Source: Escherichia coli (GTDB lineage Bacteria > Pseudomonadota > Gammaproteobacteria > Enterobacterales > Enterobacteriaceae). From it: a stretch of 64,000 nt of DNA. Within the stretch, counting starts at the first letter, position 1. Each line of letters begins with the position of its first letter. Of this stretch, positions 54,768 to 59,685 are shown piece by piece. The translations under genes and the position numbers were made by a program. Below the pieces are notes generated by a model. The model was not told where the DNA came from. It was given only the letters and a program-made list of their open reading frames with translations, and did not search any database. The stretch lies in the NCBI RefSeq assembly GCF_041248615.1, contig NZ_CP158426.1, one strand, 5' to 3'.

Positions 54768-55532
54768 ATGAAAATGCAGACATTACCCATCGTTCCATGG
54801 ATTGGTGGCAAACGTCGCCTGGCAAAACACATCCTGCCGCTGTTTCCGGCGCATGAATGTTACGTGGAGCCGTTCTGCGGCGCAGCAGCGCTCTATTTTC
54901 TTAAGACACCTGGTAAGCTCGAAGTCATTAACGATATCAATGGTGAACTGGTAAATCTGTATCGGGTGGTAAAACATCATCTGGAAGAATTTGTCCGCCA
55001 GTTCAAATGGGCGCTGGTCAGCCGGCAGATCTACAAATGGCTGCAGATCACCCCGACAGAAACACTGACGGATATCCAGCGTGCAGCACGGTTCTACTAC
55101 CTCCAGAAGCAGGCGTTTGGCGGCAAGGTGGCAGAGCACAGCTTCGGCACCTCCACCACATCCCCGCCACGCTTCAACCTGCTGCGTATCGAGGAAGAAC
55201 TGTCAGCGGCACACCTGCGGCTTTCCAGAACGGTGATAGAACACATGGACTGGCAACAGTGCATTGAGCGCTATGACCGTCCGCACACGCTGTTCTACTG
55301 TGACCCGCCGTATCTGGGTACAGAAGGCTATGGTGTGGATTTTCCTGAAGGGAACTACTCGCGGCTGGCAGAGCTGGCCCGGTGCATCAGAGGAAAGATG
55401 ATAATTTCGGTGAACGACATCCCGCAGATGCGCGAGGTGTTCACTGGACTGAACATACAGACAGTGAACATCAACTACAGTCTGGCAGGCAAATCAACTC
55501 CACGCCGTGAGCTGGTGATCTGCAATTTCTAA
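54768..55532 (+). CDS. Orphan Dam-like N6-adenine DNA methyltransferase
   Basis: 254 aa; motif I VEPFCGAAALYF and catalytic DPPY (FYCDPPYLG); N-terminus WIGGKRRLAKHILPLFP resembles Dam; no restriction partner nearby. Confidence 0.85.
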   Translation: MKMQTLPIVPWIGGKRRLAKHILPLFPAHECYVEPFCGAAALYFLKTPGKLEVINDINGELVNLYRVVKHHLEEFVRQFKWALVSRQIYKWLQITPTETLTDIQRAARFYYLQKQAFGGKVAEHSFGTSTTSPPRFNLLRIEEELSAAHLRLSRTVIEHMDWQQCIERYDRPHTLFYCDPPYLGTEGYGVDFPEGNYSRLAELARCIRGKMIISVNDIPQMREVFTGLNIQTVNINYSLAGKSTPRRELVICNF

Positions 55533-55650
55533 AAGCCATAACCGGAAAGTACAGTGCTTTCCGGTAAGCCCGCCGATTTCTGCCATGCTACTGACGGCGT
55601 TTTCTGAAAGCATCCAGATCAACCACCTGTCCTTTCTGTCCAGGTCAGAA

Positions 55651-56043
55651 TCAGCCTGCGAGTTTGCCTGGTTTTGGCTGAGTGAAGACTTTGCCGACGT
55701 CAAGAAATGAACGTTGTTGTTCTCTTGTCATTTTATCAAACGCAGCCACCAATTCTTGCTGATCATGAGAAAGTGGTTTAGTAGGTGGCACACTATCTTC
55801 CGTAAGAAACCTTGAACCGACACCTGTTAATAGCCAATTAATGTTTATACCCAACTGTGTACAAAGTTTTGTTAACCCCACAATATTCGGCTCACGAGCT
55901 CCATTCAAATAGCTTTGCGCAGTACGGTATGGCAGCTCACACGCTTCCGCAAACTCTTTGATAGATTTGATTTTCTTTTCTGTCAAAACTTCCTTCAAAC
56001 GTTCAGCAATACACATTTGCATCTCTTTTATTGCTTTATACAC
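55651..56043 (-). CDS. Phage repressor, XRE-type HTH (start codon uncertain)
   Basis: 130 aa, HTH around EFAEACELPYRTAQSYLNGAREPNIVGLTKLCTQLGININWL; divergent from early operon. Confidence 0.7.
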   Translation of the reverse strand: MYKAIKEMQMCIAERLKEVLTEKKIKSIKEFAEACELPYRTAQSYLNGAREPNIVGLTKLCTQLGININWLLTGVGSRFLTEDSVPPTKPLSHDQQELVAAFDKMTREQQRSFLDVGKVFTQPKPGKLAG

Positions 56044-56053
56044 ATTTGTGTAT
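56038..56053. promoter_or_regulatory. Candidate operator palindrome ATACACATTTGTGTAT in immunity region
   Basis: Near-perfect 16 bp palindrome overlapping the repressor 5' end. Confidence 0.35.
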
Positions 56054-56104
56054 ATAATCTATCACATATAACGCAAACATCATTACACCAAAAAGGAGGC
56101 AACA

Positions 56105-56293
56105 ATGACTGCAGACCAGGTCAAAGCCCATTTCCGCCGCAATGGGATCACCTTTACCCAGTGGGCAAAACAGAACAACTACACCAGAGCGGAGGTGTAC
56201 CGCGTTCTGAATGGTCAGGTAAAAGCGAACTACGGCAAAGCCCATGAAATCGCCGTCAAGCTGGGATTAAAAACCATCACTGACGCCGCTTAA
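56105..56293 (+). CDS. Small DNA-binding early regulator (Ner/Cro-like)
   Basis: 62 aa, first gene of the plus-strand early operon, strong RBS AAAAAGGAGG. Confidence 0.55.
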   Translation: MTADQVKAHFRRNGITFTQWAKQNNYTRAEVYRVLNGQVKANYGKAHEIAVKLGLKTITDAA

Positions 56294-56346
56294 AAAGATA
56301 CAGCATACGAAAAAGATTATCACATATTGAAAAAAGAGGTGTGCAG

Positions 56347-56655
56347 ATGAGTAAGACGAATGTTTCAAGCTCCGGCAGTCGCATCCTCCGGGTACTTAAA
56401 GCGCTGCGTGGGCATGCCCTGAACGGTATTTCCAATGGTGAACTGGCAGCAGCACTGCACGAGTCACCGGCGAACATCAACCGGGCACTCAACACCCTCA
56501 TTGAAGAAGGGCTGGCTCTGAAACTGGAGAACGGACGTTTCGCACCGGGCATCCAGTTATTACAGATCGCCATGGCACACACTAATGAGATGGCACGAGC
56601 ACAGGATCGTATTAACGAAATCAACCAACGTGTCATTTCAGGTAGTCGTTTATAA
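56347..56655 (+). CDS. Small winged-helix-like protein
   Basis: About 102 aa; ILRVLKALRGHALNGISNGELAAAL resembles an IclR-type HTH. Confidence 0.45.
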   Translation: MSKTNVSSSGSRILRVLKALRGHALNGISNGELAAALHESPANINRALNTLIEEGLALKLENGRFAPGIQLLQIAMAHTNEMARAQDRINEINQRVISGSRL

Positions 56656-56665
56656 GGAGTAATCA

Positions 56666-57583
56666 ATGGGACGTACCAAATCACCGGTTAACACTGAACT
56701 GAGCGTCGAGGTACCGCTGTCGGATGATCTCAACGTCAGCCTGAATGCCATGACACAGCATCGCATGGAGATCATGCAGCAGTTTGGCGATGGTCAGCCC
56801 TATGAGCGCGATCGTATCGTGCATGAAGCTCGCTTTTATATGGCACAGAGCGCTGAGGCTATGCTGGAAGCGGGTAAGCGACTGATTATTCTAAAAGAAA
56901 ATGAACCGCATGGTGATTTCATAAATATCGTCGAGTCTGAATTATCAATGTCGAAGCGTACTGCACAGGTCATGATGCAGGCATCAATAAAATATTTATC
57001 ACCACAACTTGGGTCAAAAGCGCAGACGTTTGCGCTTTTAGGAAAAGCAAAACTATTTGAGTTAATGACGGAAGACGATGAAGACCTTGCCGAACTGGCC
57101 GACGGCGGTACGGTTGCCGGCCTGACGCTTGACGATGTTGATCGCATGTCAGTACGTGAACTTCGTCAGGCCCTGCGCGAAGCGCGCGAAACCAATGCAG
57201 CACAACAGCGTGTTCTAGCCGACAAAAATGAAAAAATCGACTCACTCTCCACCAGGCTGGAGAAAAAATCCCGTATTCAACCGCCTGAGCCTGATGAAGA
57301 GGTGAAGAAGCTGCGGGCGGAAGTGACCGCATTAGCGGTTGAGGCGGAATCTGCCATCGCCGTCCGGCTCTCCGGTGCCTTTGAAACCCTGTGTGAATAC
57401 TGCAGTAAAAACATGATTGATACCCCCAGAGATTTCATGGCCGGTCTGGTCTGCCAGATTGAACGCAGTGTTCATGCATTGCGTGAGACGTTCGACCTTG
57501 ATGCCGCACCATCGGGTAACGATGTCCCCGCATGGCTGACCGAACCGGAGCCTGAAATCAACCGACCGGAGGGCATGCGTTAA
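56666..57583 (+). CDS. Early-operon protein of unknown function
   Basis: 305 aa, RBS AAGGAG, coiled-coil central part. Confidence 0.55.
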   Translation: MGRTKSPVNTELSVEVPLSDDLNVSLNAMTQHRMEIMQQFGDGQPYERDRIVHEARFYMAQSAEAMLEAGKRLIILKENEPHGDFINIVESELSMSKRTAQVMMQASIKYLSPQLGSKAQTFALLGKAKLFELMTEDDEDLAELADGGTVAGLTLDDVDRMSVRELRQALREARETNAAQQRVLADKNEKIDSLSTRLEKKSRIQPPEPDEEVKKLRAEVTALAVEAESAIAVRLSGAFETLCEYCSKNMIDTPRDFMAGLVCQIERSVHALRETFDLDAAPSGNDVPAWLTEPEPEINRPEGMR

Positions 57584-57915: not shown

Positions 57916-59685
57916 ATGACCCCGGCACTGACTGAAAAACTTGTTGAAACAGCCCGCGCGGCACGTAATGCAGGGCATGGTAAACGCGGTGCAATATACG
58001 ACGCTGCCTGTGCTGAACTTGGCATGTCCCGCGCCACTCTGCTGCGCAGGCTGAAGGAGGTCTCTGTGACTGATAAACGCAAAAAACGCGCCGATGCCGG
58101 ACGCAGCACCCTGACCCGCGACGAAGCCGCGCTGATATCTGCCACACTACGTGAGGCCACCCGCAAGAACGGTAAGCGTCTCTATTCCATCGCGGATGCA
58201 GTGGAAACCCTGCGGGCTAACGGCTTTATCTCCGCAGGCAGAACAGATGAAACTACCGGTGAGTTTTTCCCGTTGTCCGAAGATGCCATCAGTCGTGCCC
58301 TGCGTAACTATGGCCTGCACCCGGAACAACTGGATGCCCCTGCACCGCATACCGAAGTGGCCAGTCTGCACCCCAATCATGTCTGGCAGATTGACGCCTC
58401 ACTCTGCACGCTTTACTACCTGAGCAATGGACATAAAGGGCTGCAGGTGATGGACAGCGCGAAATTCTACAAGAACAAGCCCGCTAACCTTGCCCGTATC
58501 GCCAGTGACCGCGTGTGGAGTTACGAGATTACCGACCATGCCAGCGGCTGGATTTACGTTGAGTATGTGACGGGTGCGGAATCCGGTGAGAACCTGTGTT
58601 CTGTGCTTATCAACGCCATGCAGGAGCGTGGCGGCGCAGACGTGCTGCACGGCGTGCCAAAAATACTCTATCTCGACCCCGGCTCGGCAAACACCGCGGG
58701 TATGACGAAAAACATGTGCCGCTCACTGGGCATCGACCTGATAGCGCACAAGCCGCATAACGCCCGCGCCACCGGACAGGTGGAAAAGGCGCGTGACATT
58801 ATCGAACGCAAGCTGGAGCCGGGTCTGAAGTTCCGGCCGGTTCACAGTCTGGAAGAACTCAACGCGCTGGCCGCGAAATGGCGCAGCCACTTTAACGCCA
58901 CGGCTGTTCACAGCCGCCACGGTAAAACCCGCACGGATATCTGGCTGAAGATTACTGCTGAGCAGCTGAAAAAAGCGCCTTCCGTTGAGGTATGTCGTGA
59001 ACTGGCTGTGGCGGGACCAGAACTCCGCAAAGTCACGCCAAAACTTCGTGTCTCGTTCCGGGGCACTGAATTTGACGTATCAACGGTACCGGGCGTACTG
59101 GTCGGTGAAAAACTGATGATTACCCGTAACCCGTGGCGCAGCGATGTGGCACAGGTGGTTCTGACCGGTGAGGACGGCCACGAGACGTTCTTCCTGGTCG
59201 AAGAGGTCAGAAAGAACGAGTTTGGCTTTGCTGAAGGCGCGGCGGTATTTGGCGAAAGTTACAAAGCCCTGCCGGAAACCCCGGCGCAGATGGCGGCAAA
59301 AGAAACCGAAGCGCTGGTCACCGGTACAGACAACGCCGCAGATGCAGCTGCCGCACGCAAGGCGAAGGCGCTGCCGTTCGGCGGGCGGCTTGACCCGTAT
59401 AAACATATTGATGACGCCACACTTCCGGCCTGTATACCGAAGCGTGGTCAGGCCTCTGACGTACGCGGACCGCGCACTGAACAGCGTCCCATGACTCATG
59501 TGGAGGCCGCGAAAGCCCTGCGCGGGAAGTTTAGCGCAAACGGCCTGACCTGGACGCCGGAACATTACCGCCAGTTAACAGCACAGTACCCGGACGGCGT
59601 ACCGGAAGCCGCACTGGATGAAGTCATGGCCACGCTGACCACGCCGGCCCGCAGCAGCGTTATCAGCATTGTTAACGGCAACTGA
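57916..59685 (+). CDS. DDE (rve-type) transposase, Mu A-like
   Basis: 589 aa; catalytic D (HVWQIDASL), D (ILYLDPGSAN) and E (TGQVEKA) with D-35-E spacing. Confidence 0.9.
   Translation: MTPALTEKLVETARAARNAGHGKRGAIYDAACAELGMSRATLLRRLKEVSVTDKRKKRADAGRSTLTRDEAALISATLREATRKNGKRLYSIADAVETLRANGFISAGRTDETTGEFFPLSEDAISRALRNYGLHPEQLDAPAPHTEVASLHPNHVWQIDASLCTLYYLSNGHKGLQVMDSAKFYKNKPANLARIASDRVWSYEITDHASGWIYVEYVTGAESGENLCSVLINAMQERGGADVLHGVPKILYLDPGSANTAGMTKNMCRSLGIDLIAHKPHNARATGQVEKARDIIERKLEPGLKFRPVHSLEELNALAAKWRSHFNATAVHSRHGKTRTDIWLKITAEQLKKAPSVEVCRELAVAGPELRKVTPKLRVSFRGTEFDVSTVPGVLVGEKLMITRNPWRSDVAQVVLTGEDGHETFFLVEEVRKNEFGFAEGAAVFGESYKALPETPAQMAAKETEALVTGTDNAADAAAARKAKALPFGGRLDPYKHIDDATLPACIPKRGQASDVRGPRTEQRPMTHVEAAKALRGKFSANGLTWTPEHYRQLTAQYPDGVPEAALDEVMATLTTPARSSVISIVNGN

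Follow-up and report, generated by a model that had tools for sequence, protein, structure and literature searches.

The region between positions 55651 and 56104 of the window (the whole 64,000-nucleotide stretch of Escherichia coli DNA analyzed here) is, with a probability of about 0.8, the switch that controls lysogeny in a transposable prophage of the BcepMu type (Bcepmuvirus), ~37 kb long. At the center of this reading stands a 16/18-bp palindrome, which is very probably the operator of the divergently transcribed 121-aa immunity repressor. The strain carrying the prophage is E. coli NRZ14408, and the phage nearest to it is PhiKM of the genus Bcepmuvirus. The genes around the switch (Pfam/PGAP) include lysis genes and those for a Dam methylase, a DDE transposase, an AAA+ ExeA/MuB-like ATPase, Gam and Mor. 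The prophage backbone was found in 617 of 5426 complete E. coli genomes (~11%), whereas the immunity cassette of the present prophage occurs in only three of them.

The initial annotation had described a compact immunity region, and this description holds, with the repressor gene running divergent from the early operon. The features of the repressor side are:

55651-56016, minus strand: immunity repressor gene, 121 aa, with its ATG at 56016 and its stop at 55651-55653 (PGAP CDS WP_029490538.1)
55819-56016, minus strand: repressor NTD (residues 1-66), an XRE-type HTH of five helices (Pfam HTH_3/HTH_26/HTH_19 and AF2)
55654-55767, minus strand: repressor C-terminal module, with two helices (residues 84-94 and 98-112) and a disordered tail, QPKPGKLAG (113-121) (AF2)
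55541-55565, minus strand: terminator-like hairpin separating the Dam methylase gene from the convergent repressor gene, with a 9-bp stem (five GC pairs) followed by the tail TATGGCTTTT

The same annotation had given the repressor 130 aa and an XRE-type HTH. The longer product, with a GTG start at 56043, is a longest-ORF artefact: both the PGAP start and the lengths of the twelve closest homologues (120-122 aa) agree with 121 aa. The HTH, on the other hand, is real, with Pfam matches to HTH_3 at 24.1 bits (cut-off 23) and HTH_26 at 26.0 bits (cut-off 22); HTH_19 scored 27.5 bits, under its cut-off of 30.2. The AF2 helices of the NTD span residues 3-13, 19-26, 30-38, 45-55 and 59-64, with a pLDDT of ~90 over residues 1-66. 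Foldseek placed this domain in the five-helix 434/P22-type fold, superposing it on P22 c2 and 434 Cro at TM 0.81-0.87 and an rmsd of ~1.5 A; target-normalized TM-scores of 0.8-0.87 were obtained against the N-terminal domains of P22 c2, 434 Cro, SinR and DdrO. A PDB sequence search with the repressor returned weak HTH-level matches alone, the top match being a spurious dehydrogenase. The C-terminal module is kept across heteroimmune relatives, whose DNA homology runs from the left up to 55740-55760. Its near-invariant residues in alignment A1 are K86, Q87, A92, F93, D94, M96, E99, R102, L105, G108, Q113, P114, K115, P116, K118 and A120. Its role may be dimerization or oligomerization, and possibly that of an induction handle.

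The putative regulatory sites on the early side of the repressor gene and within it are:

56031-56058, plus strand: predicted early promoter Pe, with -35 TTGCTT (56031-56036), a 16-bp spacer and -10 TATAAT (56053-56058)
56037-56054, no strand: O1, putative primary operator, an 18-bp palindrome, TATACACA-TT-TGTGTATA, with perfect 8-bp arms
56008-56025, no strand: O2, putative weaker auxiliary site, aATACACA-TT-TGCATCTc, covering the repressor start codon (56014-56016)
55846-55863, no strand: O3, putative distal operator-like site in the repressor gene, TATACCCA-AC-TGTGTACA, over codons C52-I57 and 191 bp from O1

O1 fills the 16-bp spacer of the rightward promoter Pe. When the 88-bp intergenic region was shuffled by dinucleotides, only 0.8% of the shuffles gave a palindrome with arms of at least 8 bp (P ~0.008). 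The initial annotation had seen this element as a 16-bp near-palindrome, ATACACATTTGTGTAT, overlapping the 5' end of the repressor gene. The palindrome itself stands, and is in fact longer and perfect in its arms; the overlap does not, since the proposed GTG at 56043 sits in its left arm and O1 therefore lies 21 bp upstream of the gene, clear of its 5' end. O1 is kept in six loci with a homologous NTD, from E. coli, Klebsiella, Salmonella, Yersinia and metagenomes. Transcription from Pe would be expected to start near 56065. The consensus promoter scan did not call Pe because its -35, TTGCTT, matches only three of six positions and is weak in this allele. At the same position relatives show TTGACA, TTGACT, TTGATA or TTTACA, 17 bp, and then (A/C)ATAAT. 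BcepMu and phiE255 follow the same promoter plan, an 18-bp dyad lying between the -35 and the -10 (BcepMu TTGACA-GGTAATCAAACGCATACC; phiE255 TTGACA-GGTAACGAATTTGTTACC-ATAAT). For the repressor's own promoter, the consensus scan gave nothing convincing. Two minus-strand hexamers were considered for this role and dropped, namely TATAAA at 56035-56040, whose -35 is poor, and GATTAT, which reads as the conserved ATAATC on the opposite strand; the two are inconsistent across immunity groups.

O2, 29 bp from O1 center to center, contains the direct repeat D11 (ATACACATTTG, 56009-56019), a weaker copy of the palindrome that overlaps the true repressor start codon. In the present allele it matches 11 of 16 arm positions, its left arm being also bound by the M-C-I codons. 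The Yersinia, Klebsiella and Salmonella relatives carry at this position TATACACAT(T/C)TGTGT, a full palindrome. O3 is the sole further site within three mismatches of O1 in the 64 kb, where 0.00 are expected, and is kept in seven homologues, the rare Ile codon ATA included. Synonymous-codon identity reaches 79% at O3 versus 43% in the rest of the NTD (Fisher test), with codon pairs that are not phylogenetically independent. O3 is located in conserved coding sequence. All three sites are kept in the same-NTD loci of Yersinia, Klebsiella and Salmonella, whose repressors are 55-70% identical.

We compared 44 distinct related loci for covariation between the palindrome and the parts of the repressor. 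Every immunity type carries a palindrome of its own, 16-20 bp long and placed at -71 to -50 relative to the first early ATG. Operator identity averaged 0.87 for pairs with the same NTD and C-terminal domain (CTD) and 0.91 for pairs sharing the NTD with a different CTD. It was just 0.31 where the CTD was the same and the NTD different, and 0.33 where both differed. In a Mantel test, the correlation with the NTD was reached by none of 2000 permutations, and that with the CTD by 132 of 2000. Across these sequences the palindrome follows the repressor NTD, and neither the conserved CTD nor the conserved first early protein; the NTD is the putative immunity-specific part of the repressor. The boundaries of the exchanged DNA are sharp. 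In blastn comparisons with six heteroimmune relatives, homology was lost at 55740-55760 and came back at exactly 56054 in all six, defining one further feature:

55760-56053, no strand: exchangeable immunity cassette of ~295 bp, comprising the NTD and linker coding sequence, O3, O2, the -35 and O1

Within it, the NTD-coding DNA physically adjoins O1.

Such an arrangement raises the question of whether the covariation reflects linkage only, with the palindrome serving some other purpose, for example as a host-factor site or as a structure in the promoter spacer, and the operators proper lying elsewhere. As the NTD-coding DNA and the palindrome share one ~295-bp cassette, their co-inheritance is expected whatever their function. 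We nevertheless hold this explanation to be highly improbable. All of the approximately nine unrelated cassette types have a dyad-symmetric 16-20-mer at the same spacer offset; within a group the palindrome arms are conserved while the centers drift; and a host-factor site would keep its sequence from cassette to cassette, whereas the palindrome changes. Further, several immunity groups have extra own-type copies of the palindrome at distances of 29-34 bp and 190-260 bp, and groups other than the present one have own-type distal sites at -228, -259 and -192; in several groups (the L003 and L007 types) no auxiliary sites were found at the threshold used. The palindromic form, the fixed position in the promoter and the fact that the cassette encodes no further protein together argue for a function beyond linkage, in keeping with O1 as a repressor operator.

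The conserved DNA to the right of the cassette holds the following features:

56060-56069, plus strand: TATCACATAT motif, located where the early transcript is predicted to begin, conserved and not immunity-specific
56105-56293, plus strand: first early gene, coding for a 62-aa HTH protein in the Cro/Ner position, homologue of BcepMu gp16 and phiE255 gp45
56318-56327, plus strand: second exact TATCACATAT copy, upstream of the second early gene (IclR-type wHTH) and within a conserved GTAACAGGTTATCACATATTG-type element

The first early protein matches PHROG 925 ('HTH DNA binding protein', E 3e-31), and BLASTP gave 48% identity to gp16 and 52% to gp45. A Ner-type HTH was not recovered in it, Pfam giving only sub-threshold matches to HTH_31 and HTH_7; in the absence of a Pfam Ner domain, the gene is 'Ner-like' by position only. 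Could this gp16-like protein, or the IclR-like second early protein, be the one that reads the palindrome in place of the repressor? Both are small HTH proteins whose genes adjoin it, and binding in the divergent promoter region is likewise established for the Cro/Ner analogue of Mu and lambda. The comparisons leave this idea scarcely credible. The first early protein is 100% identical in the present locus and in two others (L003 and L004) that carry three different, unrelated palindromes, and hence cannot be their specific binder. Two sequence forms of the GTAACAGGTTATCACATATTG-type element accompany two alleles of the second gene, and these alleles do not track the palindrome. Moreover, the return of homology between heteroimmune loci falls exactly at the right edge of O1.

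The initial annotation had also placed half sites resembling ATCACATATA in the 60 bp that precede the first early gene. We found just one copy there (TATCACATAT, 56060-56069), in a motif that is kept in heteroimmune relatives, and the proposal is not supported. As a repeated site, the 10-mer is likewise discarded: at this tolerance three were found in the window against 2.0 expected, which is not above chance. A related possibility is that the repressor reads both the palindrome and ATCACATATA-like half-sites downstream of the -10, given that TATCACATA superficially resembles the O1 half-site TATACACA only 6 bp away and recurs before the second early gene. We consider it very unlikely: loci whose repressor NTDs and palindromes (TCCCA..TGGGA, TGTCTAA..TTAGACA and TGCTCAT..ATGAGCA) are unrelated still carry CTAWCACAYATAA, and the motif has no inverted partner and lies in DNA common to all immunity types. 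Being kept despite entirely different HTH domains and palindromes, it cannot be immunity-specific. The 5'UTR also features an inverted repeat, GCAAACATCATTGC, with compensatory arm changes in one lineage. It is absent in more distant relatives, and for that reason its reading as an RNA hairpin, or as a site for the gp16-like protein, was set aside.

Among characterized systems, the repressor shares its position with BcepMu gp17 and phiE255 gp46, which lie divergent from the gp16/gp45-like HTH gene and beside the lysis and early modules; here it is divergent from the gp16-like gene, between the lysis/methylase block and the transposition operon. Those proteins also combine an XRE HTH with a helical C-terminal part. 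Pairwise BLASTP with gp17 was marginal (E 0.001, ~19% identity); hhalign of the family profile A1 against gp17 gave 98.2% probability and an E of 4.9e-14 over residues 2-92. On these grounds the repressor is a positional and profile-level homologue of gp17, with a putative role in early-promoter repression and superinfection immunity. It differs in its CTD variant, in the palindrome sequence and in its E. coli host, as opposed to the Burkholderia proteins. Gene 46 of phiE255 has already been noted as a region differing from BcepMu (PMC2920897). In the literature searched, we found no experimental operator mapping for the BcepMu-type phage group, and no experimentally mapped operators of gp17 or gp46.

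The family profile also matches E. coli DicA of the Qin prophage (the P22 C2-like dicA-dicC immunity region), at 97.9% probability in an alignment that takes in the HTH and the first C-terminal helix (LSPKELELLELF versus LSHDQQELVAAF). DicA, too, is a small prophage repressor that is not cleavable and is encoded divergently from a Cro-like gene, but belongs to a lambdoid prophage, is unaligned beyond residue ~105 and has unrelated operators. The phage Mu repressor c (Rep) presents the same logic: a transposable phage with a repressor divergent from an early operon that codes for a small DNA-binding protein, then the transposase and its ATPase. It too is not RecA-cleaved, and the Mu system has several operators (O1-O3) and Ner. 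The C-terminal tail of the Mu repressor governs its sensitivity to ClpXP. However, the DNA-binding domain of Mu Rep is a winged helix related to MuA (domain I-alpha), whereas Pfam finds only a Cro/C1-type HTH in the present repressor, whose fold is of the 434/P22/SinR type; membership in the Mu-type repressor or Ner families is ruled out on the Pfam results. Further, the Mu immunity region is at the left genome end, whereas the present one is central and its putative operators are simple palindromes.

By fold only, the best full-length analogues of the AF2 model are SinR, the SPbeta-type arbitrium phage repressor and DdrO (also 3op9), which join an HTH to a short helical CTD; full-length TM is ~0.45-0.5 with an rmsd above 9 A, and the match to the SinR-SinI complex (1b0n_A) has an E of 2.9e-3 and an rmsd of 11 A. 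None of SinR, the arbitrium repressor and DdrO cleaves itself; each is switched off by a partner (SinI, AimX) or by a protease dedicated to it (IrrE). In contrast to the SinR and DdrO systems, the neighborhood yielded neither a SinI-like paralogue nor an IrrE/ImmA-like protease. A tblastn search of the window with the CTD found no SinI-like CTD paralogue (best non-self match E 0.32), and the prophage genes include no annotated antirepressor or ImmA/IrrE-type protease by Pfam, PHROG or PGAP names. The locus also departs from the ImmR/ImmA and DdrO/IrrE arrangements, its neighbors being the Dam methylase, uncharacterized PHROG families and early genes; the proteins scanned and the PGAP names across the prophage include no peptidase family, and thus no COG2856/M78-type metalloprotease. 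With the lambda CI/LexA type, the repressor would share the repression of an early promoter through dyad-symmetric operators, multiple sites and possibly looping, but it does not share the S24 peptidase domain or the Ala-Gly site in the linker, being all-helical and 121 aa long.

This last difference concerns induction. The initial annotation had seen no LexA-like autocleavage domain in the repressor, and this is supported: there is no Pfam match to Peptidase_S24 at E<=0.01; the AF2 model is all-helical, its C-terminal 55 residues forming two helices and a disordered tail without beta structure; the linker (residues 67-83, SRFLTEDSVPPTKPLSH) has no Ala-Gly or Cys-Gly scissile pair, the sole A-G being the last two residues of the protein; and 121 aa is too short for such an architecture. 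The corollary drawn there, that induction is unlikely to be directly RecA-mediated, is a sound one. A search for LexA boxes (CTGT-N8-ACAG and the 20-mer consensus) found none inside the Mu-like prophage. Apart from a GC-rich match in a head gene, ascribed to chance, it returned just two SOS boxes (26816 and 26844), both ahead of a dinI-like gene in a flanking lambdoid remnant; SOS wiring of the prophage was rejected on this distribution.

An indirect coupling to the SOS response is a separate matter, in which a LexA-controlled or damage-activated antirepressor or protease, of phage or host origin, would hit the C-terminal module. The inactivation of the structural analogues by partners or proteases speaks for it, as does the conservation of the repressor CTD and tail across immunity types. 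In Gifsy phages, short repressors lacking a cleavage domain are inactivated by LexA-controlled antirepressors (PMC3121763), and an unexplained rise of the BcepMu early genes follows H2O2 after 30-60 min (PMC2830190). Against this stand the lack of a LexA box in the Mu-like prophage and of an antirepressor, protease or SinI-like candidate in the searches above, and we give such coupling a minor, though appreciable, chance. The two-helix CTD and its tail are common to repressors with at least six unrelated HTH/operator specificities. More speculatively, this shared CTD with its QPKPxK(L/F)AG tail might serve as a common induction handle for one non-LexA-boxed protease or small antirepressor, encoded by phage or host, with the cassette setting immunity independently; we regard this as a doubtful proposition. 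Were it true, heteroimmune Bcepmuvirus prophages would be co-induced by the same non-SOS signal.

Taken together, we propose that the 121-aa repressor, consisting of an XRE HTH, a flexible linker and a two-helix module, would bind O1, presumably as a dimer. As O1 fills the Pe spacer, this binding would shut off the early operon, silencing the genes for the gp16-like HTH protein, the IclR-like regulator, a DUF3102 protein, the DDE transposase and the MuB-like ATPase and those beyond. The weaker O2 and O3 would probably provide cooperativity and negative autoregulation, and possibly a loop of ~190 bp. The ~295-bp cassette appears to be exchanged whole between otherwise similar prophages, and as one unit would define the immunity type. 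Since the repressor has no S24 domain, derepression would have to go another way, perhaps by proteolysis or by a partner acting on the conserved C-terminal module. The operator assignments in this scheme are putative, being derived by comparison.

No new principle is involved: a small XRE repressor occluding an early promoter, modular heteroimmunity and the lack of autocleavage are all textbook phage biology. What the analysis provides is a set of testable operator assignments for approximately nine immunity types, along with the exact limits of the exchangeable immunity cassette. These may be used in annotating BcepMu-type prophages, predicting superinfection immunity between strains and designing induction or curing experiments.

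The immunity region belongs to a Mu-like prophage of ~37 kb, the nearest phage record of which is Escherichia phage PhiKM, a Bcepmuvirus; positions 55400-57000 match the E. coli NRZ14408 chromosome (NZ_LT599825.1) at 100% identity. The genes and flanks are arranged as follows:

28024-28404, minus strand: YadA-like C-terminal fragment, left flank of the prophage
Minus strand: tail, head and terminase genes
51.5-53.3 kb, minus strand: holin, SLT transglycosylase and Rz-like genes
Between the lysis genes and the methylase: three small genes with no assigned function
54768-55532, plus strand: Dam-type methylase (D12 class, adenine)
Between the methylase and the early operon, minus strand: repressor gene
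Rightward operon, in order: 62-aa HTH protein, IclR-type wHTH protein, DUF3102, 105-aa protein, DDE transposase (57916-59685), AAA+ ExeA/MuB-like ATPase, Gam, GemA-like protein, Mor
NZ_LT599825.1 4581596-4582408 (locus L096, 5597-6409): YadA-like N-terminal fragment, right flank of the prophage

The same layout is seen in BcepMu, with gp17 as repressor and gp16 as small HTH protein (PMC2628397, PMC2920897). A YadA-like gene is split by the prophage, which appears to have transposed into it; this gene is part of a lambdoid prophage resident next to prfC. While its backbone is present in 617 of 5426 complete E. coli genomes, this immunity region is found in only 3; in the remaining backbone-carrying genomes the match to the window is broken into two pieces. 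The convergent methylase and repressor genes share a terminator-like hairpin (55541-55565).

The initial annotation described a repressor of 130 aa. An ORF of that length with a GTG start does exist (55651-56043); however, the true start is almost certainly the ATG at 56016, giving 121 aa. This is the start annotated by PGAP, the 12 closest homologues in a search of 5.8 billion proteins are 120-122 aa long, and the nine-codon N-terminal extension lacks protein conservation, its GTG-TAT being a palindrome arm. The proposed XRE-type HTH was borne out, with Pfam matches only to Cro/C1 HTH families, and PHROGs assign the protein to transcriptional repressors. An AlphaFold2 model built on a 21-sequence alignment (mean pLDDT 80) predicts a five-helix HTH domain (NTD; residues 1-66, pLDDT about 90), a low-confidence linker (67-83), two C-terminal helices (84-94 and 98-112; CTD) and a disordered tail, QPKPGKLAG. 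We likewise found no LexA-like autocleavage domain, as initially claimed: the model has neither beta structure nor an S24 domain, and the linker lacks Ala-Gly or Cys-Gly. The best full-length structural analogues, namely 3op9, SinR (from the SinR-SinI complex), an arbitrium-phage repressor with its antirepressor, and DdrO, combine an HTH with a short helical domain and are controlled by partners or proteases; superposition over the full length is poor, with rmsd above 9 A. The family profile matched BcepMu gp17 at 98.2% and E. coli DicA at 97.9%, both through the first C-terminal helix. Across related loci, the repressors consist of two modules, a variable NTD and one of several CTD variants, with natural chimeras pairing one NTD with different CTDs and one CTD with different NTDs.

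The 16-bp near-palindrome placed by the initial annotation over the repressor's 5' end is real and better than described, at 18 bp, but its position relative to the gene was mistaken, as the GTG of the longer ORF lies within a palindrome arm. This primary candidate operator, O1 (TATACACA-TT-TGTGTATA, 56037-56054), has 8-bp arms without mismatch. When the 88-bp intergenic region was shuffled by dinucleotide, 0.8% of the shuffles had arms of at least 8 bp, and the whole 64 kb holds only 19 palindromes as good. O1 occupies the 16-bp spacer of a predicted rightward early promoter, Pe (TTGCTT, 56031-56036; TATAAT, 56053-58), and covers the first two -10 bases. A consensus promoter scan did not call Pe, because its -35 matches the consensus at only 3/6 positions.

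We then compared this region with five other E. coli alleles, 80 IMG/VR loci obtained with the first early protein as query, and four contigs (from Yersinia aldovae, Klebsiella oxytoca, Salmonella and a metagenome) with 55-70% identical repressors. Between -71 and -50 from the first early ATG, each immunity group carries a 16-20 bp dyad of its own. This places the dyad in the -35/-10 spacer, directly against a conserved (A/C/T)ATAAT. Among these dyads are TATCCCAT..ATGGGATA, TGTCTAA..TTAGACA, TGCTCATAATTATGAGCA, TGGTGAG..CTGCACCA, ATGAGAAC..GTTCTCAT and TTCCCG..CGGGAA; BcepMu and phiE255 also show TTGACA, then GGTAA(T/C)..(A/T)TACC, then a -10. In four IMG/VR loci (L013-L015, L028) the slot upstream of the gp16-like gene holds unrelated 97-118 aa ORFs rather than an HTH repressor; these extend nearly to that gene, and a palindrome or promoter of the usual form is absent. 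Such loci may have a different switch architecture or be rearranged.

Operator identity, averaged over a 22-nt window in 44 distinct loci, followed the NTD: it was 0.87 where NTD and CTD were both the same and 0.91 with only the NTD the same, versus 0.31 with only the CTD the same and 0.33 where both differed. In a Mantel test, the NTD correlation was reached by 0/2000 permutations and the CTD correlation by 132/2000. The first early protein was ruled out as the specific palindrome binder because it is 100% identical in the window and two related loci (L003, L004) despite three unrelated palindromes. Between the window and six heteroimmune relatives, homology ends at 55740-55760, the start of the first C-terminal helix, and returns at exactly 56054 in all six, thus delimiting an exchangeable cassette of the HTH and linker coding sequence, the -35 and the palindrome. 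As the NTD coding DNA and the palindrome are adjacent, linkage by itself would yield their covariation; however, the cassette codes for no other protein, and about nine cassette types, with dyads unrelated in sequence, all have the dyad at one fixed position in the promoter. On both counts, a functional repressor-operator pair is by far the simplest interpretation.

Two candidate auxiliary sites accompany O1. At O2 (56008-56025), ATACACATTTG is repeated at 56009-56019, 29 bp left of O1 and on the repressor start codon; the left arm of O2, read on the opposite strand, also spells the M-C-I codons. Its right arm is degenerate in this allele (11/16 arm positions matching), and the Yersinia, Klebsiella and Salmonella relatives have a complete dyad there, TATACACAT(T/C)TGTGT. 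O3 (TATACCCAACTGTGTACA, 55846-55863) sits within the repressor gene; apart from it, nothing else in the 64 kb comes within three mismatches of O1 (expected 0.00). O3 spans codons C52-I57 and is retained in 7/7 same-NTD homologues, with invariant codons for Thr (ACA), Gly (GGT) and Ile (ATA, a rare codon); synonymous-codon identity is 79% at O3 vs 43% in the rest of the NTD, across phylogenetically non-independent pairs. Other immunity groups have extra sites of their own type near -30 to -34 and further out at -192, -228 and -259, and some have none at the threshold used. No promoter for the repressor itself was identified; any such promoter has to fall inside the 56008-56054 block or direct transcription across it, and negative autoregulation is therefore expected. 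GATC is absent from O1 and O2, and occurs once within the repressor gene, in TGATCATGA (55760-55768).

The initially proposed ATCACATATA-like half sites before the first early gene reduce to a single TATCACATAT (56060-56069). A second exact copy (56318-56327) precedes the second early gene, a recurrence not above chance at 10 nt. Directly past the Pe -10, CTAWCACAYATAA covers roughly positions +1 to +11 of the predicted early mRNA; since it lies in DNA common to all immunity types and is conserved alongside unrelated repressors, we rejected TATCACATAT as a repressor-specific half-site. The motif may be bound by a conserved early regulator, or may act as initial transcribed sequence or as a UTR signal. 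The copy near the second gene is part of a conserved intergenic element (56294-56346) with two forms, GTAAMAGGTTATCACATATTG and GTGTAACAGTGTTTCATATATAG, paired with two alleles of the downstream IclR-type wHTH gene. The early 5'UTR also contains an inverted repeat, GCAAACATCATT(G/A)C (56073-56086), which in one lineage (L011, L012, L016, L017, L022) reads TACAAACATAGTTGTA, with compensatory changes in both arms; there the gp16-like protein has S or Y for N in its R-N-EVYRV helix. More distant relatives lack the repeat, which may be recognised by the Cro/Ner-position protein or may form a small hairpin in the RNA.

With respect to induction, no LexA box was found inside the Mu-like prophage, no peptidase or annotated antirepressor among its genes, and no CTD paralogue in the window. 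Two good SOS boxes 28 bp apart, at 26816 and 26844 (CTGTTTATTCATACAG and CTGTATACAAACACAG, 26816-26859), lie directly upstream of an 82-aa DinI-like gene (26875-27123, PHROG 189). Matches to this segment are found in lambdoid phages (cdtI, 2H10) and at the Stx2c-phage insertion site beside prfC, and it thus belongs to the flanking lambdoid remnant. The repressor tail (residues 113-121, 55654-55680), QPKPxK(L/F/I)A(G/S), is predicted to be disordered and hardly varies among repressors whose HTH domains are unrelated; it could serve as a degradation or recognition tag. One precedent for induction through the C-terminal part of a repressor is Mu, in which ClpXP or Lon acts on the repressor tail. 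Short repressors under antirepressor control are another (PMC3121763). In BcepMu, early genes are up-regulated at 30-60 min following H2O2 exposure, through a mechanism that is unexplained (PMC2830190).

In the model we favor, a repressor dimer at O1 would occlude Pe and thereby silence the transposition and replication operon, with the ~295-bp cassette setting the immunity type; we hold this core to be roughly 80% probable. O2 and O3 would add cooperativity and autoregulation, possibly via a ~190-bp loop, the O1-O3 spacing being 191 bp, or about 18.2 helical turns. The conserved C-terminal module would provide oligomerisation and may be the target of the induction pathway. The immunity region is a new, rare allele of a kind of switch already known, and since the literature searched contained no operator mapping for Bcepmuvirus phages, these comparative operator assignments are useful but not surprising.
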